Assembly (NCBI GenBank): GCA_038062115.1
Contig: JBBTXS010000012.1
Span: 23,141 to 87,140, forward strand
DNA: 64,000 nt
Direction: 5' to 3'
Origin: Patescibacteria group bacterium
GTDB taxonomy: Bacteria; Patescibacteriota; Microgenomatia; Levybacterales; UBA12049
The notes beneath the pieces were generated by a model, which did no database searches, had not been told where the DNA came from, and saw only the letters and a list, made by a program, of their open reading frames with translations. This document shows positions 12,722 to 62,443 of this stretch, one piece after another. The position numbers were made by a program, and so were the translations under genes. Numbering within the stretch: the first letter of the stretch is position 1; each line of letters opens with the position of its first letter.

Positions 12722-14107
12722 TTATTTGTATAGAATATTTGATCTCAACTTGCGGTGATAGAAAATTGCAAATCTGTGAGCTTCGTCGCGGATTCGCTGT
12801 GTAAGATGGAGGACTGGCGAGTCCTTTGGAAGGAAAATTTCGACAAAGCTTGCTCTGTCGTCATTCTGAGGAGCGTTAACGACTCCAGAATCTCTCCTTT
12901 CAGTGTAATTAAAGGAGACTCTGGACGCGCTCGTTCCTCGCTTGCCAGAATGACGGTTTAAGCTTAGGGGAATAATAATTGTCTCCTCCCTTTTTGCAAG
13001 TCCTATAACTGGAATTTGCATACCCTTTTCTTTTAAAGCCATAAGAGCAGAGGATACTTGACCTTTTCCCCCATCAACTATTATTAAATCGGGCATTGGC
13101 CATTCTTTGTGATTGAGCCTTCGTCCTATAACTTCTTTAATCATTGCAAAATCGTTTGGAACAGGATAAAAATTTTTAATTTTAAACCTTCTATATAAAG
13201 ATGAATCTTTGTCTCCATTAATAAAAACTACCATAGATCCAGTAGCAGATTTTCCTTGGATATTAGATATATCGTAGCATTCTATTCTTTCTAATTTTTC
13301 AGCATGTATTCCATTTTGGGAGAGTAAGCATCGTAGACTAGACAACTGATTATCTAGTGTGTCTTGAGTTAAGTTTGGGTTAACTTTATGATCAAATTGA
13401 TTGTAGGCTGGATTTGTAATTAGTTTTATGGCATCTAGTTTTTTTTGAATTAGAGCTGCTTTTTCAAATTCTTCAAGTTTACTTAAATTATCTCTTTCTT
13501 TTTTAAGATCTTTAACAACTTTTTTTGTTTTGCCATTTAAGAAAGTAATAAGATGATTAATGTTTGATCTATATTCCTTATTGCCAACAACCTCTGGACA
13601 TGGGCAAAGTCCTAAATGGTAGTATAGGCAAAGCTTTTTTTGGTGATTTATGGTGGATTGAAACGGAAAAATTTTTCGTACAGTTTTTAAGACTAAGCGT
13701 AATGCCTGAGCGTTTGGAAATGGGCCAAAATATATAGATTTTTTGTCCTGAGCTTTCCTTGCAATTAAAACTTTAGGATATTTATCTACAGTAATTCGTA
13801 TAAGGGGATATGCTTTTCCATCAGTAAGCCGTACATTATATTTTGGCTTATATTTTTTAATGTAATTTGCTTCTAACAATAGTGCTTCTATTTCTGAGGC
13901 AACTGAAATTGTTTTTATTTTTTTGATCTTTGAAATCAAAATTTTTGTCTTTGGGCTAAGCAAGTTTAGATTAGTAAAATAAGAACTAACCCGCTTTTTA
14001 AGACTTTTTGCTTTTCCAACGTACAAGACTTCATTGTTTTGGTTTAAAAATAGATATACCCCAGGCCCTTGGGATAATGATCGATAAAAGTATGCTGATA
14101 GTAACAA
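12722..14107 (-). CDS. uvrC: Excinuclease ABC subunit C (UvrC), short form; carries an in-frame palindromic-element insertion near the C-terminus
   Basis: GIY-YIG domain (GPGVYLFLNQNNEVLYVGKAKSLKKRVSSYF), UvrBC motif, LAKREE...RIRDEAHRFAIFYHRK. An insert of about 35 aa (RHSGKRGTSASRVSFNYTERRDSGVVNAPQNDDRASF) lies between LAKREE and EIFLP. Confidence 0.85.
   Translation of the reverse strand: MLLSAYFYRSLSQGPGVYLFLNQNNEVLYVGKAKSLKKRVSSYFTNLNLLSPKTKILISKIKKIKTISVASEIEALLLEANYIKKYKPKYNVRLTDGKAYPLIRITVDKYPKVLIARKAQDKKSIYFGPFPNAQALRLVLKTVRKIFPFQSTINHQKKLCLYYHLGLCPCPEVVGNKEYRSNINHLITFLNGKTKKVVKDLKKERDNLSKLEEFEKAALIQKKLDAIKLITNPAYNQFDHKVNPNLTQDTLDNQLSSLRCLLSQNGIHAEKLERIECYDISNIQGKSATGSMVVFINGDKDSSLYRRFKIKNFYPVPNDFAMIKEVIGRRLNHKEWPMPDLIIVDGGKGQVSSALMALKEKGMQIPVIGLAKREETIIIPLSLNRHSGKRGTSASRVSFNYTERRDSGVVNAPQNDDRASFVEIFLPKDSPVLHLTQRIRDEAHRFAIFYHRKLRSNILYK
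12859..12955. repeat. Palindromic element, family A (termini GTCATTCTGAG...CAGAATGAC), in frame inside uvrC
   Basis: Terminal inverted repeat gtcattctg/cagaatgac, internal imperfect palindrome tccagaatctctccttt/aaaggagactctgga, GC-rich relative to the flanks. Confidence 0.75.
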
Positions 14108-15854
14108 TTAATATCCCTCCTATAATTCGTAAATCTAAAAATAAAGGGTAAACTTTTATATTTTTAGAAATAGATTGATTATCAAGATGTATTGTAAGCA
14201 CATCTGTTTTGTTTGTCAAAATTGGAGTTTTGTTAAAGGCAATAGGTATTGTTAAAGATCCAAAAGGTGGTATTTTGTCAAGATTAATTTTTTGATAGGA
14301 AGGAGAAAGATGTTTTGTAGTAATAATTGCGGTTTGGGGATTTGCTACTCGTTTTCCAATATTTTTAATAACTATATTACCTTTTATTGGAAGATTAGAA
14401 AAATAGCCTTTATAAAAAGTATCCGAAATTGAAAGCATTGAACCTGCTTCTTCAAAATTACTAGAAAATTTTACATCAACATCTTTGGTTGTTGTGTCTT
14501 CTGGCAACTTATATCCTCCTGCAGAAACTGGATATTGGCTGTCTATGCCTTTTATTACAAAAGCGAAATGGTCAAAGTCAAGAGTTTGGAAATAATCTAC
14601 TCCTCCTGTTGTGTTTCCCCAAGTAGGATCAATCATTACCCATGTTTTGAGAGTGTAATCGTAATACTCTGGCCATGCGTGTAAGACGTCTTTTACAAGC
14701 GATAGCGGTCTTTCTTTAGAATTTTGAGTATAGGCAAAACCATTTACTTCTCTTGCTGGAACTCCTAAAGATCGGGCAAGTGCAATAAATAAGTCTGTAA
14801 ACTCAAGACAAACCGCGGAAGATGGATTTTTTAGTGTGTCGAGTGCTCCTAGTCTTTTTTTGCCATCTGTTACTCTTGTAAGATCATATTTTAGGTTCTT
14901 AACTAAATATTCATAAATAGCATGAGGTGTTTTTAATGTGTTTGCTAAGTTTTTAATATCTTCATTTGATGTTTGCCAATAAGGCTGCTCTTTAAGGTAA
15001 ACTTTTAGTAGATCTTTGGAAGTAACTTCTTCCTTTGGAGTAAGAGATATTTTTGCTTTCCCAATTACTTTTATATTAACTTTTTGAGAAGGAGAAAGTA
15101 CATATTGCGCAAGCCAATTGCCATCTTTATCTGCTACAACTTCTATAGGTTTGGGGGTTATGTCCAGAATTTGTATTTCTTGGTAGTTGGTGGTGGGAGG
15201 GATGGCTATTTCGGTTTTTATTGGAAATAGATTTCTATTCGCAAGGTGATATAAAAGACTAAATTCGTAGATTTGCTCTTTGCCATATGCAATTGATATT
15301 CCAGATTTTCCAAGTTGGTCTTTAGAAAAGACTAAGTTGTCTGTCTCCAAACCTTTTATACTCGGCTTTATATAAACTGGATTTTTTAGAAAACTTGGAA
15401 CCTTAACGCTGACATTAAAGGAATTAAAATCGTTTTGACTGGCCAAGCCAGGAATATCGATTTGCCAAATTTTTCCATTTTTTTGAGCTACGTCTATGGT
15501 ATCAAAAGACAATCTAAAATTGAGTTTATTATCAATTCCAACCACCTTTTTATTAAAAGTTAAGGCAATACTTCTGCCGTCATCATTTTCGTTAATAGTA
15601 GGCGTTATTGGTCCATCGGGATCGTTGGCAGTAAGGTTGTCTATATTTTCAAAACCAATTTGGATATTATAGGATGAAGCATAATATTGGCTGGTTTTGT
15701 TAGTTAAGGTAATATCAAAAACTACATGCGTTTTGGCATCGTCTCCTACTGTATAAATAACATTGTAGTCAGTTGCAAAATTAGAAGAAGCAAAAGCAGG
15801 AGGTGTAACAAAAAGGATAAGAAGGAAAATTAGACAGAATATTATTTTTTTCAT
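14031..15854 (-). CDS. Secreted, membrane-anchored transglutaminase-like cysteine-protease-domain protein
   Basis: Signal peptide, then SSAVCLEFTDLFIALARSLGVPAREVNGFAY and HAWPEYYD (transglutaminase-like Cys/His core), then a C-terminal TM helix. Confidence 0.6.
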   Translation of the reverse strand: MKKIIFCLIFLLILFVTPPAFASSNFATDYNVIYTVGDDAKTHVVFDITLTNKTSQYYASSYNIQIGFENIDNLTANDPDGPITPTINENDDGRSIALTFNKKVVGIDNKLNFRLSFDTIDVAQKNGKIWQIDIPGLASQNDFNSFNVSVKVPSFLKNPVYIKPSIKGLETDNLVFSKDQLGKSGISIAYGKEQIYEFSLLYHLANRNLFPIKTEIAIPPTTNYQEIQILDITPKPIEVVADKDGNWLAQYVLSPSQKVNIKVIGKAKISLTPKEEVTSKDLLKVYLKEQPYWQTSNEDIKNLANTLKTPHAIYEYLVKNLKYDLTRVTDGKKRLGALDTLKNPSSAVCLEFTDLFIALARSLGVPAREVNGFAYTQNSKERPLSLVKDVLHAWPEYYDYTLKTWVMIDPTWGNTTGGVDYFQTLDFDHFAFVIKGIDSQYPVSAGGYKLPEDTTTKDVDVKFSSNFEEAGSMLSISDTFYKGYFSNLPIKGNIVIKNIGKRVANPQTAIITTKHLSPSYQKINLDKIPPFGSLTIPIAFNKTPILTNKTDVLTIHLDNQSISKNIKVYPLFLDLRIIGGILIVTISILLSIIIPRAWGISIFKPKQ

Positions 15855-15924
15855 TCCATGTCTATCTTATCACAAAAGCCCTCGTTTGCCTGACCGTACA
15901 TGAGTCATACTCACTACATTTTTG

Positions 15925-18804: not shown

Positions 18805-18877
18805 ATTTAATGACCTTCTATTATATGTAATTTTTTGCTACTTGACAAATATAGTTTTTAGTGGCTATCATAGATTT

Positions 18878-19579
18878 ATGATAATAAAATCATTTTCATT
18901 AGTGTTAGGTGTAGCATCGTTTCTTGTCTTTACTGTTAGCGCTTTAGCTGGGACTGCGTCGATAACTGGAACTACAGATTCTGCTGTTACTATAAGAAAG
19001 CCGATACAAGCGATTCAAGAGCAACGAGAGATGATGCTTAAAAATAGGCAAGAAACTAAAGCTATGTTGAAAGACACGAAAGAGGATCTTAAAGAAAAGC
19101 TTAATGTAATTCGAGACGAGAAGAAAAAAGTTTTAGTTGAAAAGATTGATGATAAGATTACCACAATGAATAAAACTCATACCGCAAAATTTTCTGCTGT
19201 GTTAGAAAAGCTCATGATGATTCTAAATAAAATTACCGACAGAGCCCAAAATGCAAAATTAAAAGGAGTTGATACCTCTACGGTTGATTCCGCTATTGAG
19301 GCTGCTAAAAAGGCAATAGATGTTGCAAAAGCCGCAGTTACTACGCAATCTGCAAAAACTTATAGCATAGAGGTGACTAGTGAAACCACATTAAAAACAA
19401 AGGTTGGAAGGGTAGTTAGTATGTTTAGAAAAGACCTAAGAGATGTGCATAAAATTGTAGTTGATGCAAAACAAGCTGTACAAAAAGCAGAAAGAGAATT
19501 AGCTAAAGCTCACGGAGAACAAATAGAAAAAAAGGCTCTGGATAATCGGATTAAAGAAATACCCAGTGTAAATGAATAA
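18878..19579 (+). CDS. Secreted coiled-coil protein of unknown function
   Basis: Signal peptide MIIKSFSLVLGVASFLVFTVSALA followed by Lys/Glu-rich helical repeats. Confidence 0.4.
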   Translation: MIIKSFSLVLGVASFLVFTVSALAGTASITGTTDSAVTIRKPIQAIQEQREMMLKNRQETKAMLKDTKEDLKEKLNVIRDEKKKVLVEKIDDKITTMNKTHTAKFSAVLEKLMMILNKITDRAQNAKLKGVDTSTVDSAIEAAKKAIDVAKAAVTTQSAKTYSIEVTSETTLKTKVGRVVSMFRKDLRDVHKIVVDAKQAVQKAERELAKAHGEQIEKKALDNRIKEIPSVNE

Positions 19580-21231: not shown

Positions 21232-21241
21232 AGATGATATT

Positions 21242-22132: not shown

Positions 22133-22219
22133 TATTCGTACCGTAATACTTCAATAAGAAGAAAGCTTACAAATAAACTGAATGTAAATCTTATTAGTTT
22201 TGTGTGAGGTAAGACTTAG

Positions 22220-24390: not shown

Positions 24391-24586
24391 TGTCCTGTCT
24401 AATATTGTTAAACAAGAATAGAAATGTCCGCTTTTTTGTCATTCCGAGTGCAGTGAAACGGAGTCGAGGAATCTGATCCCTCCACTCCGCTATCGCTACG
24501 GTCGGGATGACAAACCATGTAACTTATTGTGTCTCTTAAATAGGACATTTCTATTCTTGTCTGACATGTCCTGTCTAATATTTGTT
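24391..24586. repeat. Composite palindromic element: family A core (24436..24513) nested inside an 18-bp outer inverted repeat and a ~16-bp direct repeat
   Basis: Core termini ttgtcattccgag...cgggatgacaa. Outer inverted repeat acaagaatagaaatgtcc/ggacatttctattcttgt. Direct repeat tgtcctgtctaatatt on both sides. Confidence 0.75.
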
Positions 24587-25764: not shown

Positions 25765-25833
25765 TGTTTATTAATTATAGCTACTTTCGAACTTTTTTTC
25801 ACTATGGCATTTATGCAGATCAAAACAAAACAG

Positions 25834-25965
25834 TGTAGCCGTTCAGGGTTTGACAAAACATCTGTCATCTCGAGCCTAAGCGAGAGATCTCCTTGAGATT
25901 TCTCACCTACTTCGTAGCTTCGAAATGACAATTCTTTGACAACTCCTGAACGGCTACAAAACAGT
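25834..25965. repeat. Composite palindromic element: family A core (25863..25931, tgtcatctcgag...cgaaatgacaa) with a 14-bp perfect outer inverted repeat
   Basis: Outer inverted repeat tgtagccgttcagg/cctgaacggctaca. The core resembles the other family A copies. Confidence 0.7.
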
Positions 25966-26159
25966 TTATTGATTTGCTTTTATGATCTATACTAGTATAA
26001 CTTCGTCAGGAAGATCGCAGTTATTTTGATGATTTAAAACACTTGATAGTATTTAATTAAATAAATAATATTCTTAAAGATTACAATGTACAAGATAATA
26101 AGATAAAACACGAATTAATAATCTAATAATCCATTTTTGTTCTAAAAAGAATTTATACG

Positions 26160-29500: not shown

Positions 29501-29595
29501 TGTCATTGCGATCAGTCAGGCTTAGCCTGACTGAGAAGCAATCTCTCATCAATGGGATTGCCACGTCGCTCGTTCCTCGCTCCTCGCAATGACAC
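29501..29595. repeat. Palindromic element, family A (tgtcattgcga...ctcgcaatgacac)
   Basis: Termini plus internal palindromes tcagtcaggcttagcctgactga and gcaatc...gattgc. Intergenic between cysS and the glycoside-hydrolase-like gene. Confidence 0.8.
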
Positions 29596-30831: not shown

Positions 30832-31356
30832 ATGGATAGAGAAGATTATGCTTGGAACGATAAGCTCGAAAGTATTACTCATGGTAGCGTAAAGATCTAC
30901 GAGGCAATAAAGATTATAAAAATGTTTTTGGACGAAGATCCTTCTGCTGACTATAGTTTGGTTATTGGTACAGATTCTCATGAGAAAAATACCGCCAAAA
31001 ATAAAACTAAAGTTATTAGTCTTGTAACTGCTATTCTAGTACACAGACGTGGATTTGGGGGAAAATATTTTTGGAAAAGAAAAGAAGTTGAAAATATCCA
31101 TACACTTCGCGAAAAAATCTATGTTGAAACAATGAGTTCTATAAACTTTGCGTCTAAATTTGTGCCTTTACTTAAAAAAACTTTAAACGGAAGGACTCCT
31201 AAATACAACTTAGAGATTCATATTGATGTTGGCGAACACGGCGACACACGTGATATGATAAAAGAAGTGGTTGGAATGGTAACTGGAAATGGCTATGTTG
31301 CTAAAACAAAACCAGAGGCATACGGAGCAACGTATATTGCCGACAAGCACACGTAA
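30832..31356 (+). CDS. DUF458 / YkuK-like protein (predicted RNase H-like fold)
   Basis: 174 aa with LVIGTDSHEK, which resembles the DUF458 conserved core. The length matches YkuK-type proteins. Confidence 0.45.
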   Translation: MDREDYAWNDKLESITHGSVKIYEAIKIIKMFLDEDPSADYSLVIGTDSHEKNTAKNKTKVISLVTAILVHRRGFGGKYFWKRKEVENIHTLREKIYVETMSSINFASKFVPLLKKTLNGRTPKYNLEIHIDVGEHGDTRDMIKEVVGMVTGNGYVAKTKPEAYGATYIADKHT

Positions 31357-31365
31357 AAAACCAAG

Positions 31366-31797
31366 ATGCCAAAACTCAAAAGTCATGACCCTGAGCGAAG
31401 TCGAACGGGTCAAAAGTTAGAATGGCAGGAAGCAAAAGAGGTAAAAAAAAATATAGAAAATATTCTTAAGGTTTTAAATTTGCCTCACATCGATTCTTCT
31501 AGAATTTTTTGTTTTAGAACCAAAGGATCAAAATCAAGATCATATGCACGCATTTGGTCTATGCCAAAAATCTTTCAGACAGTTCTTAATGTAAAACCAG
31601 CTTATGTAATAGAAGTGATAGCCCGGCATTTTGATAGATTAGATACAGACGGAAAGAAAAAAGTATTAATTCACGAACTTTTGCATATTCCTAAAAATTT
31701 TTCTGGAGCGCTCTTACCTCACCGTAGTCGCAATCGGCATCTTGGAGCATTGGTGAATAGATTGTTTAAAGAATATAAGAAAATTTCTAATTCCTAA
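31366..31797 (+). CDS. Small HExxH zinc-metallopeptidase-like protein (DUF45/YgjP-, WLM- or SprT-like)
   Basis: VLIHELLHIPKNFSGALLPH contains HExxH plus a downstream His. It starts 10 bp after the DUF458 gene. Confidence 0.4.
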   Translation: MPKLKSHDPERSRTGQKLEWQEAKEVKKNIENILKVLNLPHIDSSRIFCFRTKGSKSRSYARIWSMPKIFQTVLNVKPAYVIEVIARHFDRLDTDGKKKVLIHELLHIPKNFSGALLPHRSRNRHLGALVNRLFKEYKKISNS

Positions 31798-42566: not shown

Positions 42567-42844
42567 TTAGTATTAAATAGATAGTAAAGCTTTGCTCTTT
42601 TTACTTTTTTCTTTGGATGTTCTTTAACTACGACTTTTTCAATATTCGGAGAAATAAATGGCCAAATTCTTTCAACCAAGACGTCTCTAACCAATTTTCT
42701 AACCCTAAAGCTCTTATTTTTCCCCCTACCCCTTATTCCCAAAACCGTTCCCTCAAAAACTTGAGTACGAGTCTTTTCTCCATCTTTGATCTTTTCAAAA
42801 ACCTTTACTATGTCTCCTGGGGCAAAATCAATCTGAGCTATCAT
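42563..42844 (-). CDS. rplS: 50S ribosomal protein L19
   Basis: FAPGDIVKVFEKIKDGEKTRTQVFEGTVLGIRGRG...RAKLYYL resembles L19. The ORF could extend to 42877, but that extension runs into the upstream repeat. Confidence 0.8.
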   Translation of the reverse strand: MIAQIDFAPGDIVKVFEKIKDGEKTRTQVFEGTVLGIRGRGKNKSFRVRKLVRDVLVERIWPFISPNIEKVVVKEHPKKKVKRAKLYYLFNTK

Positions 42845-42857
42845 AAACAGTATTGTG

Positions 42858-42965
42858 GCTGGGTCATAAATACCCATTTGTCATTCCGAGCGAGTGTAGC
42901 GAGTCGAGGAATCTCGTTGAAGGAGATTTCTCGGCAAGCTCGAAATGACAATTGTGACCCAGTCA
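42858..42965. repeat. Family A palindromic element with the extended terminal inverted repeat (c)tgggtcat...tgacccagtca; near-identical to 52151..52260
   Basis: Its core ttgtcattccgagcgagtgtagcgagtcgaggaatctcgttgaaggagatttctcggcaagctcgaaatgacaa differs by one base from the copy at 52.2 kb. Confidence 0.85.
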
Positions 42966-42998
42966 TAAACAGTATTATAGCAAATATTTACACCCATA

Positions 42999-47903: not shown

Positions 47904-49737
<1,834 letters not shown>

Positions 49738-50601: not shown

Positions 50602-50611
50602 ATTTATTTTT

Positions 50612-52126: not shown

Positions 52127-52150
52127 AACGTTTTGTAATATATGAGATTA

Positions 52151-52260
52151 TGACTGGGACATAAATACTCATTTGTCATTCCGAGCGAGTGTAGCGAGTC
52201 GAGGAATCTCTTTGAAGGAGATTTCTCGGCAAGCTCGAAATGACAATTATGACCCAGTCA
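52151..52260. repeat. Family A palindromic element (near-identical to 42858..42965), between atpA and atpH
   Basis: Same core with one mismatch, extended terminal repeat tgactggg.../...cccagtca, and a flanking direct repeat atatgagatta. Confidence 0.85.
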
Positions 52261-52591
52261 CATATGAGATTATATCATCTAGCCTACTTTTTAGATTGAA
52301 TTCGTAAACATTGTCGTTATCTACGATTTTTACCCCTAACATTAAAGATGGATCAATTTTGTAAACTATTTTTTTATTAGGAAATAATTTTTCAAATCCT
52401 ATGTTACTGTATGCCTTAAAAGGTGTAGTAACTATAATGTTTTTTTTATCTTCGTAATTTTTAAGCGCATCAATATACTGTTTAAGTTCGAATCTTGTAA
52501 AACAGTTTACAATGGCATATACTTTGTTGCTGTCTAAAATATCATTTTTATAACTTTCTGCCACCAAATTTTTTAGTTTGTTTCTGGTCAT
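52247..52591 (-). CDS. atpH: ATP synthase F1 delta subunit (OSCP), short form
   Basis: Operon position between atpF and atpA, and a C-terminus (DPSLMLGVKIVDNDNVYEFNLKSRL) that resembles delta. Confidence 0.6.
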   Translation of the reverse strand: MTRNKLKNLVAESYKNDILDSNKVYAIVNCFTRFELKQYIDALKNYEDKKNIIVTTPFKAYSNIGFEKLFPNKKIVYKIDPSLMLGVKIVDNDNVYEFNLKSRLDDIISYVTGS

Positions 52592-52597
52592 AAAGTT

Positions 52598-53101: not shown

Positions 53102-53106
53102 AATAC

Positions 53107-54044: not shown

Positions 54045-54094
54045 AGAATTACCTTTTATTCTTAATCTAAGTGTAGACTTAATTATATATTAAG

Positions 54095-57000
54095 TCAAGA
54101 CGAAAAATGATTTTTTGTAGATATTTTTTCTGCAATAACGGTTGGCTTGTCATTCTTTGTATCAAGCTTTCCTTCTATAATTACAACAGAATCTTTTATT
54201 AATAAATTTTTGTGTCGTTCATAAATTCTTGGAAAAATAACACATTCTACAGATAGTCCTTTTTCGTCGCCAACTGTTGAAAATGCCATTTCGTTCCCGC
54301 TTTTAGTAAATATTCTTTTAGTTGTTTCTATAATTCCGCCTATTTTAACTCTTGTGCCTTCTTTTTCTTCTGTCAAAAGATCAATCTCATGGGAAATTAC
54401 TGATTTTAAAGATAATAAGTTATCAAGTTGTGGATGGGATGTTAAATAAAGTCCTAAAAATTCTTTCTCAAAAGCTAGTTTTTCATTGGACGAAAAATCA
54501 TCTACATTTGAAACAGTTCTTTTAAGATTATCCATGCCTAAACTATCGCCAAAAAGGCTAGATTGTCCAACCTGAGCCTGTTTTCGTTTTCTATGAGCAT
54601 TCTCGGCAATCTCTGGATACGAGATTAAAAGATTTGCTCTGTTTCCAAAAGAATCCATAGCACCTGCTTTTATAAGACTCTCAACTGTTTTTTTATTCAC
54701 TGGACCAGGGTCAACTCGATCATAAAAATCTACAAGACTTTTAAACAAACCAGTTCTTCGTGCGGTAAGAATGCTATTTATGGCTGCTTCTCCAACATTT
54801 TTTATAGCAGAAAGCCCAAACCGAATGTTTTTTTTATCCTCAATAGTAAAATCGCTAGCAGATTTATTAACGTCTGGAGACAAAACTGTAAGTTTTAATC
54901 TTTTACACTCTGCAACAGCTTGAGCGATTTTTTCGTTTTTTGTTGGACCAGTAGTGCCCCGAGACTCTGCGGTTAATAAGGCAGTCATAAATTCTACTGG
55001 AAAATGCGCCTTAAGATACGCAGTTCTAAAAGCAATGGTTGCGTAACCCGCAGCATGTGCCTTATTAAAACCGTATCCCGCAAACGGCTCAAATAAATTC
55101 CATAAATTTTGAGCATTATCCTTTTTCATTCCGCCTGCTACGCATCCTTGTACAAACTTGTCATGTTGTTTTTTCATCTCTGATGGGATTTTTTTACCAA
55201 TCGCTTTTCTTAGTTTGTCTGTCTCAAGCCAAGAGTATCCTGCTACTTTTATTGCAGTCAACAAAACATCATCTTGGAAAGTAATAACGCCATATGATTC
55301 TTTTAATATCTCTTTAAGTCGAGGATCAGGATATTTGATGTGAGATGCACTATGCTTACGTTTAACAAACTCTGGAATATTTGCCATAGGTCCTGGTCTA
55401 TACAAAGCAACCATGGCCTGAAGATCAAATATAGAGGTTGGCTTTAATTCTTTTATATATCTTCTCATTCCAGAAGATTCCAACTGGAATATTCCAGTAG
55501 TTTCTCCCGAAGAAAGCAACTCAAATGTCTTTTTGTCATCAAAAGATGCCTGAGACAAATCAATATTTATTACTTGGTTTTCTTTAATGAATCGTAAAGC
55601 TTCTTCTATGATTGCTAAATTTCTAAGCCCCAAGAGATCAATCTTTAAAAGTCCCACGCCATCTTCTCCAACAGTGTACATGTCGTACTGAGTAACTATT
55701 TTCTCTCCGTTAGTTTCTCGTTGTAGAGGAGTGTATTCAGTAAGAGGCCTATCTGCAATTACAACTCCAGCAGCATGCATAGATGCATGTCTGACAACAC
55801 CTTCCAATCTTGTCGCAAGATCCAATAGTTTTTTGGCGTCTGGTTCTGTAGCATAGACAGTTTTGAGATCAGTACTCTGTTCAAGAGCTTTTTCTATGGT
55901 CATTGCATGGCCTTGCCAACCAGGAGGAATCATCTTTGCTATTCTATCGCAAACTGCATATGGCATGCCAAGCGCCCGGCCAGTATCTCTTACAGAACCC
56001 CTTGCTTCCATTGTTCCAAATGTAATAATCTGAGCAACTTTATCCCGACCGTATTTTTGAGTTACATATTCTATAACTTCATCTCGTCTGTTATCGGCAA
56101 AATCAAGATCAATATCTGGAGGAGAAGGCCGCATTGGATTAAGAAACCTTTCAAATGGAAGCTTAAAAAACAAAGGATCTATATCCGAAATGCCTAAGGC
56201 ATAAGACACTATAGAGCCAGCATTAGATCCTCGGCCTGGACCAACCGTAATCCCATGGTTTTTTGCCCAATTGACAAAATCTGCAACAATAAGAATATAC
56301 GTTTCGTAGCCTTTCTTTAAAATGATAGACAGCTCATATTCAGCTCGCTCTCTTATTTCACGAGTTATTTCTTTGTATCTATTCTTTAGCCCTTCTTCTA
56401 CTTTATTTTTCATGAATTCTTGTGGCGTTTTATTGTTTGGTACATCAAAAATAGGCATAATCCACTTGCCAAGAGATATTTCTACGTTACACATATCTGC
56501 AATTCTAGAAGTGTTTTCTAGGGCTGTTTGTGTTTGAATAAAGAGACCCTTCATTTCTTCTTGAGACTTCATATAGAAATCAGGAGAAGAGATCATAGAA
56601 AGCTTACGGTTTGGCGTATTTAAGGCTGTTTGTGTTTGAATACAAAGCAAGATTTCTTGTGCTTCTGCATCTGTATTATAAATATAATGATTATCGTTAG
56701 TTGCAACCAAAGGTAAACCCATTTTTTTGGAAAGAGCAATTAATTTTTCGTTTAGAATATCTTGATCCTCAACGTTTATGTGTTTTTGGAGTTCTAAATA
56801 AAAGTTGCCTTCTCCAAATATTTTATATAAAACCTCTGCTCTTTTTACCGCTGTTTCTTCTTGGTTTTGTATCAGTGGATCAGAGATATACCCATTGACG
56901 CATGCGCTTAAACATATTAAGCCGTTGCTAAATTGCCGAAGAAGTTCAATATCGGTTCTTGGTCTGTAATAATATCCCTCTAAGTTTGCAATAGAAATTA

Positions 57001-57313
57001 TTTTAATAAGATTTTTGTATCCTGTATTATTTTTTGCCAAAAGTATTAGATGGTTTGAGTCGTTGTCAACTCCCGCCTCTTTATCGTGTCTTGATCTTTT
57101 GGATATGTAGATTTCGCATCCAATAATTGGTTTAATACCTAAAGCTTGGCATGTTTTATAAAAGGTAATCGTTCCGTACATATTTCCATGATCTGTAATC
57201 GCTAACGCTTTCATATTAAGTTCTTTGGCACGCTTGACCATTTCTGGGATTTTTGAAAGCCCATCTAAAAGAGAATATTCACTATGATTATGAAGGTGAA
57301 CAAAATTTGCCAT
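54095..57313 (-). CDS. dnaE: DNA polymerase III alpha subunit
   Basis: PHP domain (FVHLHNHSEYSLLDG), polymerase core, and an OB domain; 1072 aa. Confidence 0.95.
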   Translation of the reverse strand: MANFVHLHNHSEYSLLDGLSKIPEMVKRAKELNMKALAITDHGNMYGTITFYKTCQALGIKPIIGCEIYISKRSRHDKEAGVDNDSNHLILLAKNNTGYKNLIKIISIANLEGYYYRPRTDIELLRQFSNGLICLSACVNGYISDPLIQNQEETAVKRAEVLYKIFGEGNFYLELQKHINVEDQDILNEKLIALSKKMGLPLVATNDNHYIYNTDAEAQEILLCIQTQTALNTPNRKLSMISSPDFYMKSQEEMKGLFIQTQTALENTSRIADMCNVEISLGKWIMPIFDVPNNKTPQEFMKNKVEEGLKNRYKEITREIRERAEYELSIILKKGYETYILIVADFVNWAKNHGITVGPGRGSNAGSIVSYALGISDIDPLFFKLPFERFLNPMRPSPPDIDLDFADNRRDEVIEYVTQKYGRDKVAQIITFGTMEARGSVRDTGRALGMPYAVCDRIAKMIPPGWQGHAMTIEKALEQSTDLKTVYATEPDAKKLLDLATRLEGVVRHASMHAAGVVIADRPLTEYTPLQRETNGEKIVTQYDMYTVGEDGVGLLKIDLLGLRNLAIIEEALRFIKENQVINIDLSQASFDDKKTFELLSSGETTGIFQLESSGMRRYIKELKPTSIFDLQAMVALYRPGPMANIPEFVKRKHSASHIKYPDPRLKEILKESYGVITFQDDVLLTAIKVAGYSWLETDKLRKAIGKKIPSEMKKQHDKFVQGCVAGGMKKDNAQNLWNLFEPFAGYGFNKAHAAGYATIAFRTAYLKAHFPVEFMTALLTAESRGTTGPTKNEKIAQAVAECKRLKLTVLSPDVNKSASDFTIEDKKNIRFGLSAIKNVGEAAINSILTARRTGLFKSLVDFYDRVDPGPVNKKTVESLIKAGAMDSFGNRANLLISYPEIAENAHRKRKQAQVGQSSLFGDSLGMDNLKRTVSNVDDFSSNEKLAFEKEFLGLYLTSHPQLDNLLSLKSVISHEIDLLTEEKEGTRVKIGGIIETTKRIFTKSGNEMAFSTVGDEKGLSVECVIFPRIYERHKNLLIKDSVVIIEGKLDTKNDKPTVIAEKISTKNHFSS

Positions 57314-57322
57314 AGCTCAATA

Positions 57323-57412
57323 TGTCATTGCGAGCGAACTTTAGTTCGCGCGGCAATCTCTTTTGATGGGGATTGCTTCGTCTCAGGCTTCGCCTGATCC
57401 TCGCAATGACAC
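57323..57412. repeat. Family A palindromic element between dnaE and gatB
   Basis: tgtcattgcgag...ctcgcaatgacac with internal palindromes gcgaactttagttcgc, gcaatc...gattgc and tcaggcttcgcctga. Confidence 0.8.
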
Positions 57413-58857
57413 TATAATAATTGCTTTTTAATCTCTCTTTTTACTATATTAGGATCTATACTTTTTAAAATTTTTCTTAATACCATTCCTACCAAAAACA
57501 TAATCACATTTGCTTTACCTTTTTTATAATCGCTTATTGCTCTTGGATTGTCAAGAATTACTTGTTTTACTGTTTTTTCAAGGTACTTCTGATCAACAGT
57601 CGTTTTTTGCGTTGACGTAATAATACTTCGAACTAACTGCGCTGGCATTGTTTTTTCTAAATCTACTTTTTTATTGATAATCCAGTTAGCAATAACCTTT
57701 GTATTTATAGATTCCTGATTCTTAATTCTTAATTCACGATTCACTTTTACCGCTTCTTCGAAATATTCTGCAATCCCTCTATCTTTTGTTAATATTTCAC
57801 TGTCGTAATCTGACAAACCATAAATTTTTGTGAATCGTTGAAACTTTTGATCGGGTAGTTCTGTCATTTGAAATTTGAAATTTGAAATTTGTAATTCCAC
57901 CCACCGAATGGGTGGTATATCTGGCTCTGGGAAGTATCTATAATCCATTGTTTCTTCTTTTACTCTTTGAGACACTGTAATTTGTTTTTTGCTATCCCAA
58001 CCCCTTGTTTCTTGGATTGGAGTTTTTCCTGATTCTAAAATCTTTTTCTGCCTTTCTATCTCGTAATTTATTGCCTTTTCGACAAAACGGAAAGAATTAA
58101 TATTTTTTACTTCGACTTTATAGGTAGGCAACCTCTCACTGTCATTGCGAGCGAAGCGAAGCAATCCCTCTACTTTTGAGATTGCTTCGTCGCCGCGTCT
58201 GACGCGGCTTCCTCGCAATGACATTTCAGATAGTGAAATGTTAGGCTCCAACCGCATCTGCCCTCTCTCCATGTCTGCGTCTGACACGTCTAAGTATCTA
58301 ACGATTTGCTGGAGTTTTTTTAGATATTCAACGACCTCTGTTGCAGATTCAAAATCAGGTTCAGTAACTATTTCAACAAGCGGAACTCCTGATCGATTAA
58401 AATCTATCAGCGTTACTTTTTCCCCTTTTACAATAGAATGAATTAGCTTACCAGTATCTTCCTCCATGTGAACCCGACGTATCCGAATTATTTTTTTACC
58501 CTCACCTCGAAGGTGTTTATCCGTTTCACCTTCCAGGTGTACATATCCACCGACTGCAAATGGTTGATCGTATTGTGAAATCTGGTATCCCTTAGGAAGG
58601 TCTGGGTAAAAATAATTTTTCCGATCAAACTTTGAAAATAGAGGAATCTTGCAATTTAATGCAAGCCCAATCATCACACACCACTCAATTGCTTTTTTGT
58701 TTGGAACTGGTAGGGCTCCAGGGAGCCCTAAGCAGACTGGACAAACGTGAGTATTTGGGTCTTTACCAAAATAATCCACAGAACAGCCACAAAACATTTT
58801 AGATTTTGTTTTTAACTCAACATGAACCTCAAGACCTATGACTGGTTTGTACCCCAT
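57412..58857 (-). CDS. gatB: Asp/Glu-tRNA(Asn/Gln) amidotransferase subunit B, with an in-frame palindromic-element insertion
   Basis: MGYKPVIGLEVHVEL..., a zinc-binding CGCS, and KNINSF. An extra ~28 aa (EMSLRGSRVRRGDEAISKVEGLLRFARNDSE) sits in the loop before KVEVKNINSF. Confidence 0.9.
   Translation of the reverse strand: MGYKPVIGLEVHVELKTKSKMFCGCSVDYFGKDPNTHVCPVCLGLPGALPVPNKKAIEWCVMIGLALNCKIPLFSKFDRKNYFYPDLPKGYQISQYDQPFAVGGYVHLEGETDKHLRGEGKKIIRIRRVHMEEDTGKLIHSIVKGEKVTLIDFNRSGVPLVEIVTEPDFESATEVVEYLKKLQQIVRYLDVSDADMERGQMRLEPNISLSEMSLRGSRVRRGDEAISKVEGLLRFARNDSERLPTYKVEVKNINSFRFVEKAINYEIERQKKILESGKTPIQETRGWDSKKQITVSQRVKEETMDYRYFPEPDIPPIRWVELQISNFKFQMTELPDQKFQRFTKIYGLSDYDSEILTKDRGIAEYFEEAVKVNRELRIKNQESINTKVIANWIINKKVDLEKTMPAQLVRSIITSTQKTTVDQKYLEKTVKQVILDNPRAISDYKKGKANVIMFLVGMVLRKILKSIDPNIVKREIKKQLL
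58140..58224. repeat. Family A palindromic element inserted in frame within gatB
   Basis: tgtcattgcgagcgaagcgaagcaatc...gattgcttcg...ctcgcaatgacat. The reading frame stays open through the element. Confidence 0.8.
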
Positions 58858-59596
58858 TACTTCTCCTTTCCTTAACAAAATTTTGAACTTCTTGATAACT
58901 TTTCTGCCATGGCCAATAAAGCGAACCTGATAGACCATATACAGGAATACAAAAGTTAGGTCGATCTCTATTTATTGATGTCATTTCCGAAACAACAATA
59001 TCTACCGTTTCTTGTACAGTCGTACTTTTAAGATCAACACATTCTGAGAAACGGATAGAACTTAGTATTTGATCAAGTACAACAATGCCTTTAAATAATT
59101 GTGGACCTACTCTATTTTTTGCTAATTCTTCTACGGGGTTTCTTTTAGCATAAGGCTTATTTTCAACAAGAATAACACACAGATTCTCTCGGGGGATCAC
59201 GATCCTATTGAAGTTATACTTAAGATCATGCGTCGCGCTCAAAATAGCAGTTTCAAAAGATTTCTCCAACGTTACATCTGTATTAGAAAGGGATATACTA
59301 GTCTTATTTACGGGATCTACCCAGTTTCTGCTAAAAAGTATCCCTTTTTTTCTTGCAAAACTCTCAGCCACTAATCCATGGAGAAGAATTCCCCGTAGTC
59401 TATCTACTGGTAAATTTGTGAGGCCATTATTGTTATGAATATCCCCTAAGCGGATAAAGCCATGCTTAAATAACAACGGCTCAGTGTGGATGTCTACAAC
59501 TTTATTTATTGCTGCTTCTTGTGCCATTTCAATAAAGCTGGATGAATGTTCAGGACTTACTTCGACATTCATAGTATAGGTTTTTGTTTGTGCCAC
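58829..59596 (-). CDS. Hypothetical protein located between gatA and gatB
   Basis: Intact 255-aa ORF within the gat cluster. It has a weak GDIH motif but no complete metallophosphoesterase signature. Confidence 0.35.
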   Translation of the reverse strand: MAQTKTYTMNVEVSPEHSSSFIEMAQEAAINKVVDIHTEPLLFKHGFIRLGDIHNNNGLTNLPVDRLRGILLHGLVAESFARKKGILFSRNWVDPVNKTSISLSNTDVTLEKSFETAILSATHDLKYNFNRIVIPRENLCVILVENKPYAKRNPVEELAKNRVGPQLFKGIVVLDQILSSIRFSECVDLKSTTVQETVDIVVSEMTSINRDRPNFCIPVYGLSGSLYWPWQKSYQEVQNFVKERRSNGVQTSHRS

Positions 59597-61023
59597 TCTG
59601 TTTCTTGTTCGTATTTATAAGCAACGTTTAGTATTAACGCTTCCGAAAACTGGGGGCCGATGATTTGCATGCCAATGGGTAGACCTTGTTTTGAAAATCC
59701 GCAGGGAACACTGATGCCAGGAAGCCCTGCGATAGAGGACGGTTCTACCAATACATCTGCCATTTCGCCAAACATAGGATGATTTTTGCTAGAGCCAAGA
59801 GGTAACGCTGTTGATGGACTTGTTGGCCCTATAATTACATCTACTCCGCCAGTTGACGGATTAAATGCTTTTTCAAAGTCTTGAATTATAAGTGTTCTAA
59901 CTTTTTGTGCTTTATTGTAATATTGGTCATAGTACCCAGCAGACAATGTATATGTTCCAAGCATTATTCTCCGTTTTGCCTCATCGCCAAAGTAAGATCG
60001 ATCATTACCATACCTAATCCCATCGTATCGCGCAAGATTTGAAGAGACTTCCGAACGCTGAAGAATCGTATATACTGCGATTGCATATTTTGGTGGAAAA
60101 AGTTTAATAGTTTTTATTATTGCACCCTTTTTTTCTAAAACTTTTAAAGCATTATGTACTCCATTTTGAACTTCTTGATCAACACCCTCGAAATAATCAT
60201 TAGAAACTCCTATCTTGACTTTCTCAATCGATCGATTGAGATTTTTGGTATAGTATGGTACTTTTTTGGGAGAAGTAGTGGCATCAAAAGAATCTTTTCC
60301 TGCTAATACTTGTAAAATTAATGCACTATCTTCTACAGTTTTTGTAATTGGGCCAGGAGAATCAAGAGAAGACGCCATTGCGATAAGGCCATATCTACTT
60401 ACCCTTCCATAAGTTGGCTTAAGACCTACAACTCCACACCAAGATGCTGGTTGTCGAATAGAACCAGCAGTTTCTGATCCAATTCCAGCAATTGCTTGAT
60501 TAGCTGCAACGCTTGCCGCAGCGCCGCCTGATGATCCACCAGGTAAAAAATTCGTATTCCAAGGATTTTTTGTAGTTCCATAATCAGAAGTTTCGGTTGA
60601 TGATCCATGCGCCCACGCATCCATGTTGGTTTTTCCAAGCATTATCATCCCAGCATCTTTGAGTCGGTTTACAACTGTAGCATCATATGGTGGAATAAAA
60701 TCATCAAGTACCTTACTTGACGCAGTTGTTCGAATACCTTTTGTACAAAAATTATCTTTTATGCTAATAGGGATGCCAAGAAGGGGAAGAGTATTTAATT
60801 GCTCAATTGTTAAATTGTTAAATTGTTTGTCTGCCATTTTTGCAGCTCCGATTGCTTCTTTTTCGCAAACTGTAATAAACGCATTTATCTTTGAGTCGAG
60901 TTTTTTAATTTGGTCTAGGCAGTCTTCGGTAAGTTCGAAAGATGAAAATTTTTTATTCCTTAATCCTTCTTGTGCTTGTTTAATTGTTAGTTGATTTAGT
61001 TTCATAGTTTCTCTCAATGTCAT
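59569..61023 (-). CDS. gatA: Glutamyl-tRNA(Gln) amidotransferase subunit A (amidase signature family)
   Basis: GGSSGGAAASVAA (amidase signature) with the Ser-cisSer-Lys triad context. Confidence 0.9.
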   Translation of the reverse strand: MTLRETMKLNQLTIKQAQEGLRNKKFSSFELTEDCLDQIKKLDSKINAFITVCEKEAIGAAKMADKQFNNLTIEQLNTLPLLGIPISIKDNFCTKGIRTTASSKVLDDFIPPYDATVVNRLKDAGMIMLGKTNMDAWAHGSSTETSDYGTTKNPWNTNFLPGGSSGGAAASVAANQAIAGIGSETAGSIRQPASWCGVVGLKPTYGRVSRYGLIAMASSLDSPGPITKTVEDSALILQVLAGKDSFDATTSPKKVPYYTKNLNRSIEKVKIGVSNDYFEGVDQEVQNGVHNALKVLEKKGAIIKTIKLFPPKYAIAVYTILQRSEVSSNLARYDGIRYGNDRSYFGDEAKRRIMLGTYTLSAGYYDQYYNKAQKVRTLIIQDFEKAFNPSTGGVDVIIGPTSPSTALPLGSSKNHPMFGEMADVLVEPSSIAGLPGISVPCGFSKQGLPIGMQIIGPQFSEALILNVAYKYEQETEWHKQKPIL

Positions 61024-61037
61024 GCTGAATTTATTTC

Positions 61038-61089
61038 AGCATCTATTTTCTGTCATGAGTAAGATTCTGAAACAAGTTCAGGATGACAC
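61038..61089. repeat. Family B palindromic element between gatA and gatC
   Basis: catgctgaatttatttcagcatc hairpin plus gattctgaaacaagttcaggatgacac. Confidence 0.7.
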
Positions 61090-61093
61090 AGAA

Positions 61094-61375
61094 CTATCCA
61101 TCTAGTATTGTTTTTACTTTAAATAAACCATTATGTACAGACTTTGCATTTTTTAAAACTTCTTCTTGAGAAAGCGAGGGTTTTGCTTCATCTTCTCTTG
61201 TAACATTTTCCAGGCCTGTTACTTGACTTGTAGGTTCAATATTTTCTGTAGCAACTTCTTTTAGTTTGTTTATATACTGTAAGATTGAAAAGAGTTGTTT
61301 TTGAAATTTTTCCTTTTTATCTTCTTTTATCTGTAGATTCGCAAGTTTTGCAATATGGGAAACATCTATTTTCAT
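61094..61375 (-). CDS. gatC: Glutamyl-tRNA(Gln) amidotransferase subunit C
   Basis: ~93 aa: MKIDVSHIAKLANLQIKEDKKEKF...PTSQVTGLENVTREDE... resembles GatC. The ORF could extend to 61540, but only by crossing a palindromic intergenic region. Confidence 0.7.
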   Translation of the reverse strand: MKIDVSHIAKLANLQIKEDKKEKFQKQLFSILQYINKLKEVATENIEPTSQVTGLENVTREDEAKPSLSQEEVLKNAKSVHNGLFKVKTILDG

Positions 61376-61491
61376 AAATTTGCCTTTCCCCCGAGTTTTG
61401 TTAATTAATGATGCAAAGGATCTCTTTTCTAGGAGATCCCTCTGCCTGCTGACCTCGGGATGAGTCTGAAATAACATTCCAGACTCAGTTA

Positions 61492-62358
61492 TTATACCGA
61501 AATACCCAAGCGTTTCGCAATTGTCTCGTGGGCTTGCCATTCAAGGGAGTCGTTAAGAGAGGAGAGGTTGATAGATTTTTTGTACTTTCTCTTAAGAGCA
61601 AGTTTTATTAGGTAATCTGCAAAATGGGGATTTTTTGGGAGGATTGGGCCGTGTAAATAGCTTCCAAAACTGTTTTTATAAACTACTCCTTCTGTTTTAT
61701 CTTCTCCATTATTCCCAAAACCCTTAAGAACTTTACCCAAAGGTTTTATCTCTTTGCCAAGATAAGTTCTACCCCCATGATTCTCGAACCCAACCAGATA
61801 ATCCTTTTTGTCATTGCGAGGAGTTCTGAGCTTGTCGAAGGACGACGAAGCAATCCCATTGATTTGAGATTGCTTCACTTCGTTCGTAATGACATCTGTT
61901 TTGATGACAACATTTCCAATAAGTCTCGGTACTTTTTCTCCCCGGTTTTCTGTACATAAATCTAGGATACATAGTCCATCGATAATATTTCCGTCTGCTT
62001 CTTTGTAGTATTTGCCTAAAAACTGATAAGCGCCGCAAATATAAAGGCCTGTAACCCCATCCTCTATAATCTCTTTTAGCGCTTTTACCTTTTCTTTGCT
62101 AAAATCATGGGAAACGATTTTTTGCTGCGTATCTTGTGCTCCGCCCATAAATAGAAAATCACAAGATCTTAAATCTTGAATCTTAAATCCTAAATCTAAA
62201 TGTTTTACCTTAGTCTCAATCTTTCGCCATTCACATCGCTTTTGAAGACAAATAATATTACCTCTATCGCCATAGGTACTCATTAACTCTGGATACAACC
62301 AACCAATAACCAACTTATAATTCATACACTTATTGTCATCCCGAGCGAAGGGATGCAC
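61492..62358 (-). CDS. gatD: GatD-like glutamine amidotransferase (CobB/CobQ-type GATase partner of MurT), with an in-frame palindromic-element insertion
   Basis: It is adjacent to murT, has a GATase-like Cys context (LYICGAYQFLG), and ends in HGP. An inserted ~29 aa (DVITNEVKQSQINGIASSSFDKLRTPRNDKKD) is encoded by 61809..61895. Confidence 0.7.
   Translation of the reverse strand: MHPFARDDNKCMNYKLVIGWLYPELMSTYGDRGNIICLQKRCEWRKIETKVKHLDLGFKIQDLRSCDFLFMGGAQDTQQKIVSHDFSKEKVKALKEIIEDGVTGLYICGAYQFLGKYYKEADGNIIDGLCILDLCTENRGEKVPRLIGNVVIKTDVITNEVKQSQINGIASSSFDKLRTPRNDKKDYLVGFENHGGRTYLGKEIKPLGKVLKGFGNNGEDKTEGVVYKNSFGSYLHGPILPKNPHFADYLIKLALKRKYKKSINLSSLNDSLEWQAHETIAKRLGISV
61809..61895. repeat. Family A palindromic element inserted in frame within gatD
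   Basis: tgtcattgcgag...gaagcaatcccattgatttgagattgcttc...cgtaatgacat. Confidence 0.8.
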
Positions 62359-62443
62359 CAGACGGTGCGTCCCGAAGTCGAGGGATCTCCTGCAATTGCG
62401 ATGAAAGAGATTTCTCTCAGGCTTCGCCTGATCGAAATGACAA
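62333..62443. repeat. Family A palindromic element (111 bp) between murT and gatD
   Basis: ttgtcatcccgag...cgaaatgacaa. It shares the module tctcaggcttcgcctgatc with the copy at 57.3 kb and has an internal palindrome gggatgcaccagacggtgcgtccc. Confidence 0.8.

Follow-up and report, generated by a model that had tools for sequence, protein, structure and literature searches.

Paired hairpin repeats in a Levybacteria chromosome segment and their association with genes for Ssn-type GIY-YIG nucleases

Repeat copies and hairpin units

The DNA considered here is a stretch of 64 kb (hereafter, the window; GC ~0.35, or ~35%) from a member of Candidatus Levybacteria, within the Candidate Phyla Radiation (CPR), and the subject of this work is a family of small palindromic elements of which the window holds twelve copies. 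By its gene content the window is ordinary chromosome, as it carries uvrA, uvrB and uvrC, dnaE, gatCAB, murT/gatD, the ATP synthase operon, pyrG, cysS, eno and lexA. The closest relatives of its GatB protein belong to Candidatus Levybacteria (CPR/Patescibacteria), proteins identical to its AtpA and AtpD are encoded on contigs from the 0.1-μm fraction of Hainich groundwater, and a megablast search of plasmids with a 9.7-kb stretch of the window gave no match. Among its approximately 40 open reading frames (ORFs), there is no Y1, DDE or other transposase, save for a large serine recombinase at 1800-3362 that has no link to the repeats.

The twelve copies, each of which was recognised as a pair of left and right termini, are 68-109 bp long. 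The terminal motif TTGTCATTSCGAG, allowing up to 2 mismatches, is matched 18 times in the window, where 2.3 matches are expected and no more than 6 were seen in any of 100 shuffles. As an independent test, a covariance model was built from 84 copies in other genomes and phyla, none of them from the window. This model recovers nine of the window copies, with E values from 1e-13 to 3e-3, and both strands score equally. A first reading of the letters, made without database searches (the sequence-only reading), had claimed a repeat family with conserved termini and had proposed a covariance model as a check. The matches to the termini and the model built from foreign copies, which recovers the window copies as one family, show that this family is real. 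Ten of the copy coordinates given in that reading are also borne out to within a few bases, and its description of the copies as GC-rich islands in an AT-rich genome holds (GC 0.45-0.55, compared with ~0.35 for the window).

An element consists of two hairpin units placed head to head, in inverted orientation, and each unit follows the grammar (T/C)GTC-AT-xyz ... z'y'x'-AT-C. The (T/C)GTC tag comes first, then AT-xyz as a 5-nt arm, GAG and 7-33 nt of interior, after which the complement of the arm (z'y'x'-AT) and C(T/C)N close the unit. The terminal inverted repeats are 12 bp long, perfect, and run from TG to CA. All twelve window copies are head-to-head pairs, and at least five of them are heterodimers, with different arms in the two halves. 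For instance, the intergenic copy at 24437-24512 (model E value 9e-4) joins a left ATTCC/GGAAT unit to a right ATCCC/GGGAT unit, and the one at 25863-25930, also intergenic (E 4e-4), has ATCTC/GAGAT on the left and ATTTC/GAAAT on the right. The heterodimer at 42879-42950, between pyrG and rplS (E 7e-8), has ATTCC on the left and ATTTC on the right, and its twin lies at 52174-52245 (E 6e-8), in the ATP synthase operon, where it separates atpH, with its stop codon at 52247-52249, from atpA. These two copies are near-identical, as already noticed from the sequence, and the identity includes approximately 25 nt of flank on each side. The long copy at 62334-62442, in the gap between murT and gatD, has ATCCC/GGGAT on the left, ATTTC/GAAAT on the right and extra hairpin modules. 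It is because of these internal modules that its model score is weak (E 0.4), as its half-units are still clear.

The remaining copies include three that lie in frame in genes, at 12859-12955 in uvrC (gene assigned by NCBIfam; arms ATTCT/AGAAT; E 0.0017), at 58140-58223 in gatB (84 bp; E 1e-13) and at 61809-61894 in gatD (E 6e-10). Two copies have ATTGC arms. One of them (29501-29594; E 1e-8; ATTGC/GCAAT) lies between cysS and the next gene and contains a side hairpin, CAGTCAGGCTTAGCCTGACTG, and the other (57323-57411; E 5e-12; fold z -6.3), with two side hairpins, fills the gap between the gatB stop and the dnaE start. A degenerate copy between gatD and gatC, at 61385-61466, has an intact right half (ATCCC/GGGAT), reading TCATCCCGAG...GGGATC, and a decayed left half; the fragment which the sequence-only reading had placed near 61385 is, therefore, a genuine copy. 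The second fragment in that reading, near 3480, could not be confirmed: it is GC-rich and has a GCGAGCGTAGCG motif, but it is devoid of the termini and is not detected by the model. The claim that copies occur next to tRNAs is, likewise, not confirmed. On the other hand, one copy had been missed, an AT-rich head-to-head pair with 8-bp stems that was read from the sequence at 61018-61088, between gatC and gatA (E 0.1; fold z -4.2). One of its strands reads TGTC-ATGCTGAA-TTTAT-TTCAGCAT-C and the other TGTC-ATCCTGAA-CTTGT-TTCAGAAT-C.

Half-units that read (T/C)GTC-AT...AT-C number 18 in the window and 2.3 in shuffles. The arm triplets found in the window are TGC, TCC, CCC, CTC, TTC and TCT, and in every case the partner in the same half follows. 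Covariation was assessed over the window and 120 foreign loci, and the inner arm was chosen by context only, without requiring complementarity. Ten triplet types pair correctly under these terms (TGC, CGC, TCT, TCC, TTC, GCT, CCT, TGT, CTC and CCC), and double-sided changes occupy 50 cells, compared with 15.3±3.2 in shuffles, none of which (0/500) reaches 50. Additionally, the covariation score falls when the register is slid. Conservation is equally high in the inner arms and in the termini, and the two covary. As the two halves of one element can differ in type, the structural unit is the half and not the whole palindrome. The covarying stem is 5 bp long, with an interior of 7-33 nt, in 11 of the 12 copies; only 61018-61088 has 8-bp stems and 5-nt loops. 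Whole single strands fold into branched hairpins (z -2.6 to -8.8). G-T and A-C mismatches are of no use as a test for strand bias, since in heterodimers both strands show one mismatch of each kind. Independent GC-rich hairpins are frequent in the interiors, and some are common to several copies; these correspond to the mosaic modules of the sequence-only reading. Both examples given there are present, namely TCAGGCTTCGCCTGA in the 57323 and 62334 copies and GCAATC...GATTGC.

Spread, in-frame inserts and flanking DNA

The window elements belong to a family that crosses phyla. A scan for TGTCATTGCGAG-N50-80-CTCGCAATGACA in one genome per species yielded at least 120 loci that, among the matches listed, span Patescibacteria, Bacteroidota, Cyanobacteria, Chloroflexota, Planctomycetota, Desulfobacterota and Alpha-, Beta- and Gammaproteobacteria, with further hosts in Firmicutes, Verrucomicrobiota, Nitrospirota, Gemmatimonadota, Omnitrophota and others. 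The GC content of these hosts goes from 0.33 to 0.69. All copies are built alike, as the outer arms come first, a hairpin may follow, and then come (C)GAAGCAATC(T/C)C, a loop and the mirror image. Exact GCAATC and GATTGC inner arms are present in 108 of 126 foreign copies that had been picked by their outer termini only. As a model made from foreign copies recovers nine copies of the window, and the same termini and inner arms are found in most bacterial phyla, the proposal that the system is specific to this lineage has to be abandoned. In a search of the whole window against Rfam, only tRNAs reach the gathering score, and nothing relevant appears at E≤10 over 57000-62600. A search for the terminal sequences in the full text of the literature returned unrelated primers only.

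Positions between operon genes and inside ORFs, both described from the sequence alone, are confirmed. Many copies lie just 3' of stop codons within operons, as in atpH-atpA, gatB-dnaE and murT-gatD. The three in-frame copies add 28-33 amino acids to the encoded proteins. In uvrC, the insert (amino acids 385-417) encodes RHSGKRGTSASRVSFNYTERRDSGVVNAPQNDD, with the conserved RDEAHRFA motif downstream; in gatB, amino acids 239-267 read MSLRGSRVRRGDEAISKVEGLLRFARNDS and, in gatD, amino acids 155-184 read VITNEVKQSQINGIASSSFDKLRTPRNDK. A further example of an insert peptide is MSLRGSRVRRGDEAISK. UvrC itself (12722-14107) has only 461 amino acids, including the 33 of the insert, and terminates soon after the RDEAHRFA motif; the usual C-terminal helix-hairpin-helix domain, thus, appears to be missing.

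In an alignment of 20 Levybacteria-type GatB proteins, the shortest (433-445 amino acids) have no insert, and the others carry peptides at the same three loops, such as SLRG...DEAIS...RFARND, VIARSEATKQS...FARNDD, CHPELVSGS...KQVRHD, HPERSEGS...QND and VILG...ARMT. These are translated element heads and tails of several stem types. The head-and-tail pattern marks 30 of 120 GatB homologs, whose median lengths are 455, 479.5 and 495.5 amino acids for zero, one and two inserts, respectively. Levybacteria GatB proteins range from 433 to 558 amino acids (the window gene lies at 57412-58938), independent inserts recur at three surface positions across lineages, and some of these proteins hold two or three inserts. 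Together, the 42879/52174 twins and the patchy GatB inserts at three hot spots suggest recent copying. Intragenic copies exist elsewhere as well, for instance, in UvrA (L013).

Ogata et al. reportedly described, in 2000 and 2002, Rickettsia palindromic elements (RPEs) inside protein-coding genes. There is a likeness, as in both cases a small, AT-rich genome has palindromes inserted in frame in numerous essential genes that are unrelated to one another, with added peptide segments as the result. By contrast, RPE-1 is ~150 bp long and belongs to a separate sequence family (see the review PMC10969869), and six element-derived peptides of the window gave no match at E≤10 to NCBIfam or Pfam (NCBIfam release 20 is assumed to hold the RPE models).

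Gene prediction and assembly may both be affected by the repeats. The longest-ORF starts of gatD (61492-62358; VHPFARDDNK...) and gatA (59569-61023; ATGACA...) fall within repeat copies and, consequently, automatic annotation would extend the N-termini with repeat-derived residues. Many ssn homologs (see below) lie on contigs of 0.5-3 kb, and a 1.8-kb Hainich contig with the atpA of the window (L001) stops approximately 75 nt upstream of atpA, which, as a coordinate estimate, is within the span of the 52174 copy. The repeats probably fragment metagenome assemblies. In practice, broken assemblies, spurious ORFs and inflated protein lengths are to be reckoned with in the annotation of CPR genomes.

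The DNA around the copies was compared in 124 foreign examples. Target-site duplications at the termini (k=1-8) do not exceed chance (at k=4, 1 observed and 0.6 expected), and a logo of the flanks has no conserved base and no target motif. This fits nicking in variable flanking DNA rather than the action of a DDE transposase. Inverted repeats of at least 8 nt in the flanks are found in 15-21% of copies, compared with 3-6% in re-paired controls, and, across phyla, there is no enrichment of direct repeats in the wider flanks. Four of the window copies are enclosed by locus-specific shells (24391-24582, 25808-25984, 42841-42981 and 52135-52273), in the order direct repeat, inverted repeat, element, inverted repeat and direct repeat; likewise in L099 and L101. 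The direct repeats of the four window shells are 12-19 bp long. The 24437 shell has inverted arms of 29 nt flanked by a perfect 16-nt direct repeat, the 25863 copy is the centre of a 50-nt imperfect inverted repeat, and the 42879/52174 twins have the inner shell in common and different outer direct repeats, with an identical spacing of 122 nt. The picture resembles a target duplication of 12-19 bp produced by a larger, composite unit.

The ssn gene beside the repeats

Clustering of ORFs in the 120 related loci, in search of a recurrent neighbour, returned only ABC/UvrA ATPases, SDR and TPR proteins and response regulators. The ssn genes were overlooked at this point because they are below the 120-amino-acid cut-off of the clustering, and were found later by a motif search, which revealed GIY-YIG ORFs of 95-100 amino acids adjoining the element in Woesebacteria (L039) and Nostoc (L082 and L115). 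The proteins have PF01541 as their sole domain and are 95-98 amino acids long. The nearest examples are in another Levybacteria genome and on a contig from the same aquifer as the Hainich sequences. In the former (L123), ssn (4001-4297) has a full element on one side and, on the other, a half-unit that overlaps the ssn stop codon. Four more homologs from four phyla (in Daviesbacteria, a deltaproteobacterium, Thiohalophilus and Mastigocoleus) are all flanked by elements. In Daviesbacteria (L127) and on the aquifer contig (L131, 1159-1544, with ssn at 1201-1497), ssn is placed exactly between one left and one right half-unit, giving a full-length form (left unit, ssn and right unit) of ~385 bp, and the left half on the aquifer contig is identical to the left half of the gatB copy of the window. 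Three Levybacteria assemblies with the same ssn turned out to be the same sequence, and offer no contrast between filled and empty sites.

Repeats stand on both sides of ssn in each of the eight loci that were inspected. A larger sample comprised 72 metagenomic ssn loci of this Ssn clade with enough flank, in which half-units were sought within 200 nt of the gene, and windows located 800-1000 nt away were used as controls. Of these loci, 58 have a half-unit upstream and 58 have one downstream; 49 have both and 5 have neither. Among 100 control windows, the number was 3. The head was GTCATTGCGAG in 101 of 118 cases. The repeat family, with its covarying hairpin units, its spread across phyla and its in-frame inserts, is thus physically associated with ssn homologs. 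At 62-74% identity, such proteins occur in CPR groups, Cyanobacteria, Delta- and Gammaproteobacteria, Cloacimonetes, Elusimicrobia and others. Phage genomes contain only distant GIY-YIG relatives (35-42% identity, in Rhizobium phages), so that no phage vector is evident.

The arrangement of the units differs between hosts, as they are found in tandem rather than inverted beside ssn in Thiohalophilus (L129, 1837-2000; three left half-units with a spacing of 55 nt) and Mastigocoleus (L130, 1090-1330; three left half-units, ~60 nt apart). The deltaproteobacterial gene (L128, 1250-2050) is flanked by variant heads, GTCTTTGCGAG...CTCGCAAAGAC, in which the stem starts with TT. Stems thus need not always begin with AT, and changes in the hairpin may go together with changes in the enzyme.

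A biochemical precedent exists for this gene. Chenal et al. (2025; Nat Commun 16:2388; PMC11893778) showed that the Neisseria NTS repeat (CGTCATTCCCGCGMAVGCGGGAATCYRG) is bound and cut by SsnA, a GIY-YIG protein of 94 amino acids. Cleavage occurs in single-stranded DNA (ssDNA) only, on one strand only and a few nucleotides upstream of the repeat, the GTC before the stem governs cleavage, and binding depends most critically on the C that directly follows the stem (PMC11893778). The Levybacteria Ssn is 44% identical to the 94-amino-acid SsnA of Neisseria gonorrhoeae over 93/94 amino acids (E 8e-31), within the limits that define an SsnA homolog (E<1e-10 over more than 75% of the length), and conserves the catalytic residues Y6, Y17 and E64, whose mutation abolishes the nuclease activity of SsnA (PMC11893778). 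The ssnA gene of N. gonorrhoeae is flanked by NTS repeats, and ssn genes are typically bracketed by NTS or the related SRM repeats (PMC11893778). In the genomes related to the window, the repeats similarly bracket a single-domain GIY-YIG gene of about 94 codons (as in NTS-ssnA-NTS). The window elements share with NTS/SRM the HGTC tag, the stem that begins with AT, the C right after the stem, the abundance and the wide spread across phyla. They differ in that they are almost always head-to-head pairs resembling one palindrome of 70-110 bp, and in that a quarter of them lie in frame in genes, compared with 2% of NTS inside genes in N. meningitidis. Also, their host belongs to CPR, a group absent from the main text of Chenal et al., and the Ssn proteins of this clade are known from sequence alone.

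The hairpins themselves have a second precedent. Di Nocera, De Gregorio and Rocco (2013; BMC Genomics 14:522; PMC3733652) described a CGTC-tagged superfamily of repetitive extragenic palindromes (REPs), including dRS3 of Neisseria and RPE-4 and RPE-6 of Rickettsia. Their members have an unpaired CGTC/TGTC tag, an AT-first stem and a 3-nt tail, and mostly occur as head-to-head dimers with outer tags, among which heterodimers are common (PMC3733652). When inside genes, copies are found preferentially in uvrABC and in genes for polymerases, and the repeats have no associated transposase (PMC3733652). The elements described here have the same unpaired tag, a stem starting with A-T and then T-A, a short tail and head-to-head dimers, including heterodimers; they also share the in-frame intragenic copies, particularly in uvrABC and other repair genes, and the lack of a transposase. 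By contrast, the four families described have stems of 8-9 bp and loops of 4-5 nt, which only 61018-61088 fits, and were reported from five phyla, mostly Alphaproteobacteria, while the termini studied here occur in most phyla. The tail also differs in part: after the stem it reads C(T/C)(C/G/T), mostly CTC or CCC, and agrees with the CCA consensus of CGTC-REPs in the first base only. The repeats are, in short, a distinct "expanded-loop" TGTCATTGCGAG subfamily of the CGTC-REP/SRM class, paired with a conserved clade of Ssn.

Origin of the repeats

The element is, with good probability, a pair of recognition hairpins for a nuclease of the Ssn family, and the window copies are gene-less miniatures of the ssn-bearing unit. 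Ssn would be an enzyme of ~95 amino acids with a single GIY-YIG domain, able to cut ssDNA at specific sites. The two units of an element face away from each other and, therefore, each strand carries one correctly oriented site. By analogy with SsnA of Neisseria, the enzyme would bind the folded hairpin in single-stranded DNA only, for instance, during replication, repair or DNA uptake. The nick would fall a few bases outside the GTC tag, resulting in cuts at both outer borders of the pair, and the repair, recombination or re-ligation provoked by it could copy or move the pair without target duplication. In the full-length form, ssn replaces the central loop, and the copies of 68-109 bp are miniatures that lack the gene. 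Such copies behave as selfish or neutral DNA, which survives between genes or, length and frame permitting, as in-frame inserts where essential proteins form loops. The enzyme should tolerate a large interior, as hairpins put together from two separate oligonucleotides are also cleaved by SsnA (PMC11893778). From these analogies we infer that an Ssn of this genome cuts the sites found in the window, and that cutting spreads them.

Several observations weigh against this explanation. The window contains no ssn gene, and its units have 5-bp stems and long interiors, compared with stems of 8-9 bp and loops of 4-5 nt in the published NTS/SRM. In fact, the published SRM pattern, HGTCWYN(0-2)YYVSBRHN(0-5)WNVSBRGN(0-2)RNCYNB, finds 0 sites on either strand of the window, because the stem of the copies is too short for it and the interior too long. 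The shells of direct and inverted repeats around four copies are not predicted by a mechanism based on Ssn. Moreover, we know of no experiment in which Ssn has driven the movement or copying of DNA. The role shown in Neisseria is the restriction of transforming ssDNA (PMC11893778). Finally, the Neisseria enzyme is no longer active when the stem is given another sequence, even if the hairpin is preserved (PMC11893778) and, as a consequence, one enzyme may not serve all the stem variants of the window.

A bolder form of the same idea is that the ~385-bp unit is a truly autonomous mobile element with a mechanism of a new kind, in which a GIY-YIG single-strand nuclease of 95 amino acids, and no transposase, does the moving or copying. 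Such an element would cross phyla freely, and its miniatures would be a main source of in-frame inserts remodelling essential CPR proteins. We hold this to be possible and rather doubtful.

A serious alternative, which we nevertheless consider unlikely, is that the hairpins are domesticated sites for defence or the control of recombination, kept by the host so that Ssn cuts incoming or exposed ssDNA, and that their spread is a by-product of recombination. Grammar and partner would be the same as in the preferred explanation, and this is the sole function that has been demonstrated experimentally for an Ssn/NTS pair (PMC11893778). Near-identical elements and Ssn proteins with 62-74% identity in unrelated phyla, the nesting of ssn inside the element and random in-frame hits in essential genes, however, all have the look of something selfish that moves horizontally rather than of a system tuned by its host.

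It is improbable that the copies are mainly RNA or DNA signals (terminators, mRNA stabilisers or gyrase sites) selected by the host for their effect on neighbouring genes. The positions directly past stop codons in operons and the stable folds would suit such signals, and RNA-level roles of REPs have been argued for by Di Nocera et al. (PMC3733652). By contrast, some copies lie inside ORFs, the link with ssn is left unexplained, and the same element sequence recurs in hosts whose GC content goes from 33 to 69%, a sign of a dedicated recognition partner. The RNA-structure system contemplated in the sequence-only reading is likewise disfavoured, as there is no Rfam match, the strands score alike and SsnA acts on ssDNA and not on RNA (PMC11893778). 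Effects on neighbouring genes could still be a secondary consequence of the repeats.

The sequence-only reading had also considered a proliferating miniature inverted-repeat transposable element (MITE) or a REP/RPE-like element. The second part of this description stands, as the copies are proliferated, modular, REP/RPE-like palindromes, but they do not form a usual MITE, given the lack of target-site duplications and flank motifs in 124 copies. A classical MITE would be a deletion derivative of an insertion sequence (IS), and a DDE transposase acting in trans would move it after recognising the terminal inverted repeats of 12 bp. The perfection of these repeats, from TG to CA, the size of 70-110 bp and the direct repeats of 12-19 bp around the structures that contain four window copies would all agree with this origin. 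Yet, a transposase that binds the ends alone leaves unexplained why the inner arms are conserved like the termini and covary with them, and the full-length versions carry ssn and no transposase, so that we regard this origin as very improbable.

REPINs, the inverted hairpin pairs of REP systems, and their REP-associated tyrosine transposases (RAYTs; Y1 enzymes of the IS200/IS605 type) were reportedly characterised by Bertels and Rainey (2011), Nunvar (2010) and Ton-Hoang (2012). As here, pairs of inverted short hairpins at high copy number are non-autonomous partners of a single-copy gene bracketed by repeats, whose product recognises folded ssDNA and leaves no target duplication. Mobilisation by a RAYT is, nonetheless, the least probable origin of all, because the tag is (T/C)GTC and not GTAG, the gene actually flanked codes for a GIY-YIG nuclease and not for an HUH Y1 transposase, no RAYT, IS200-like partner (as the sequence-only reading had suggested) or other transposase exists among the ORFs of the window or the recurrent neighbours in the related loci, and CGTC-type REPs are reported never to flank RAYT genes (PMC3733652).

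With the Ssn explanation, the finding is now largely accounted for by known systems. What is new is the record in CPR bacteria, the density (12 copies in 64 kb) and the many in-frame inserts, in uvrC, gatB and gatD and, recurrently, at the same loops of Levybacteria GatB, which make this a densely colonised CPR genome. The means by which CGTC-type REPs spread was left open in 2013, and the Ssn paper of 2025 provided an enzyme partner, not mobility. In this context, full-length copies with ssn nested exactly in one element are the clearest sign so far of a relation between parent and miniature like that of IS and MITE. Additionally, the TGTCATTGCGAG subfamily, very widespread as it is, escapes the published SRM search pattern, and matched pairs of enzyme and hairpin are candidate ssDNA tools with new specificities.

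Some further features of the window were noted. The serine recombinase at 1800-3362 (+) has Resolvase, Recombinase and Zn_ribbon_recom domains, and the end of its ORF overlaps a tRNA-Gly gene on the opposite strand (3297-3368, -). Beyond this tRNA there is a GC-rich, hairpin-rich spacer (3440-3520), followed by abutting tRNA-Leu and tRNA-Pro genes (3522-3684), and this may be the border of an integrated element. Next to it, two neighbouring ORFs lie on the same strand (3700-4515 and 4531-5136, -). The upstream one, of 201 amino acids, fits the first half of an MFS transporter profile, the other, of 271 amino acids, matches no profile, and the pair may represent a split or decayed transporter gene. 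Finally, at 30832-31797 (+), a gene of the RNaseH_like family (PF04308) is followed by one for a "putative phage metallopeptidase" (PF18894), amid housekeeping genes.

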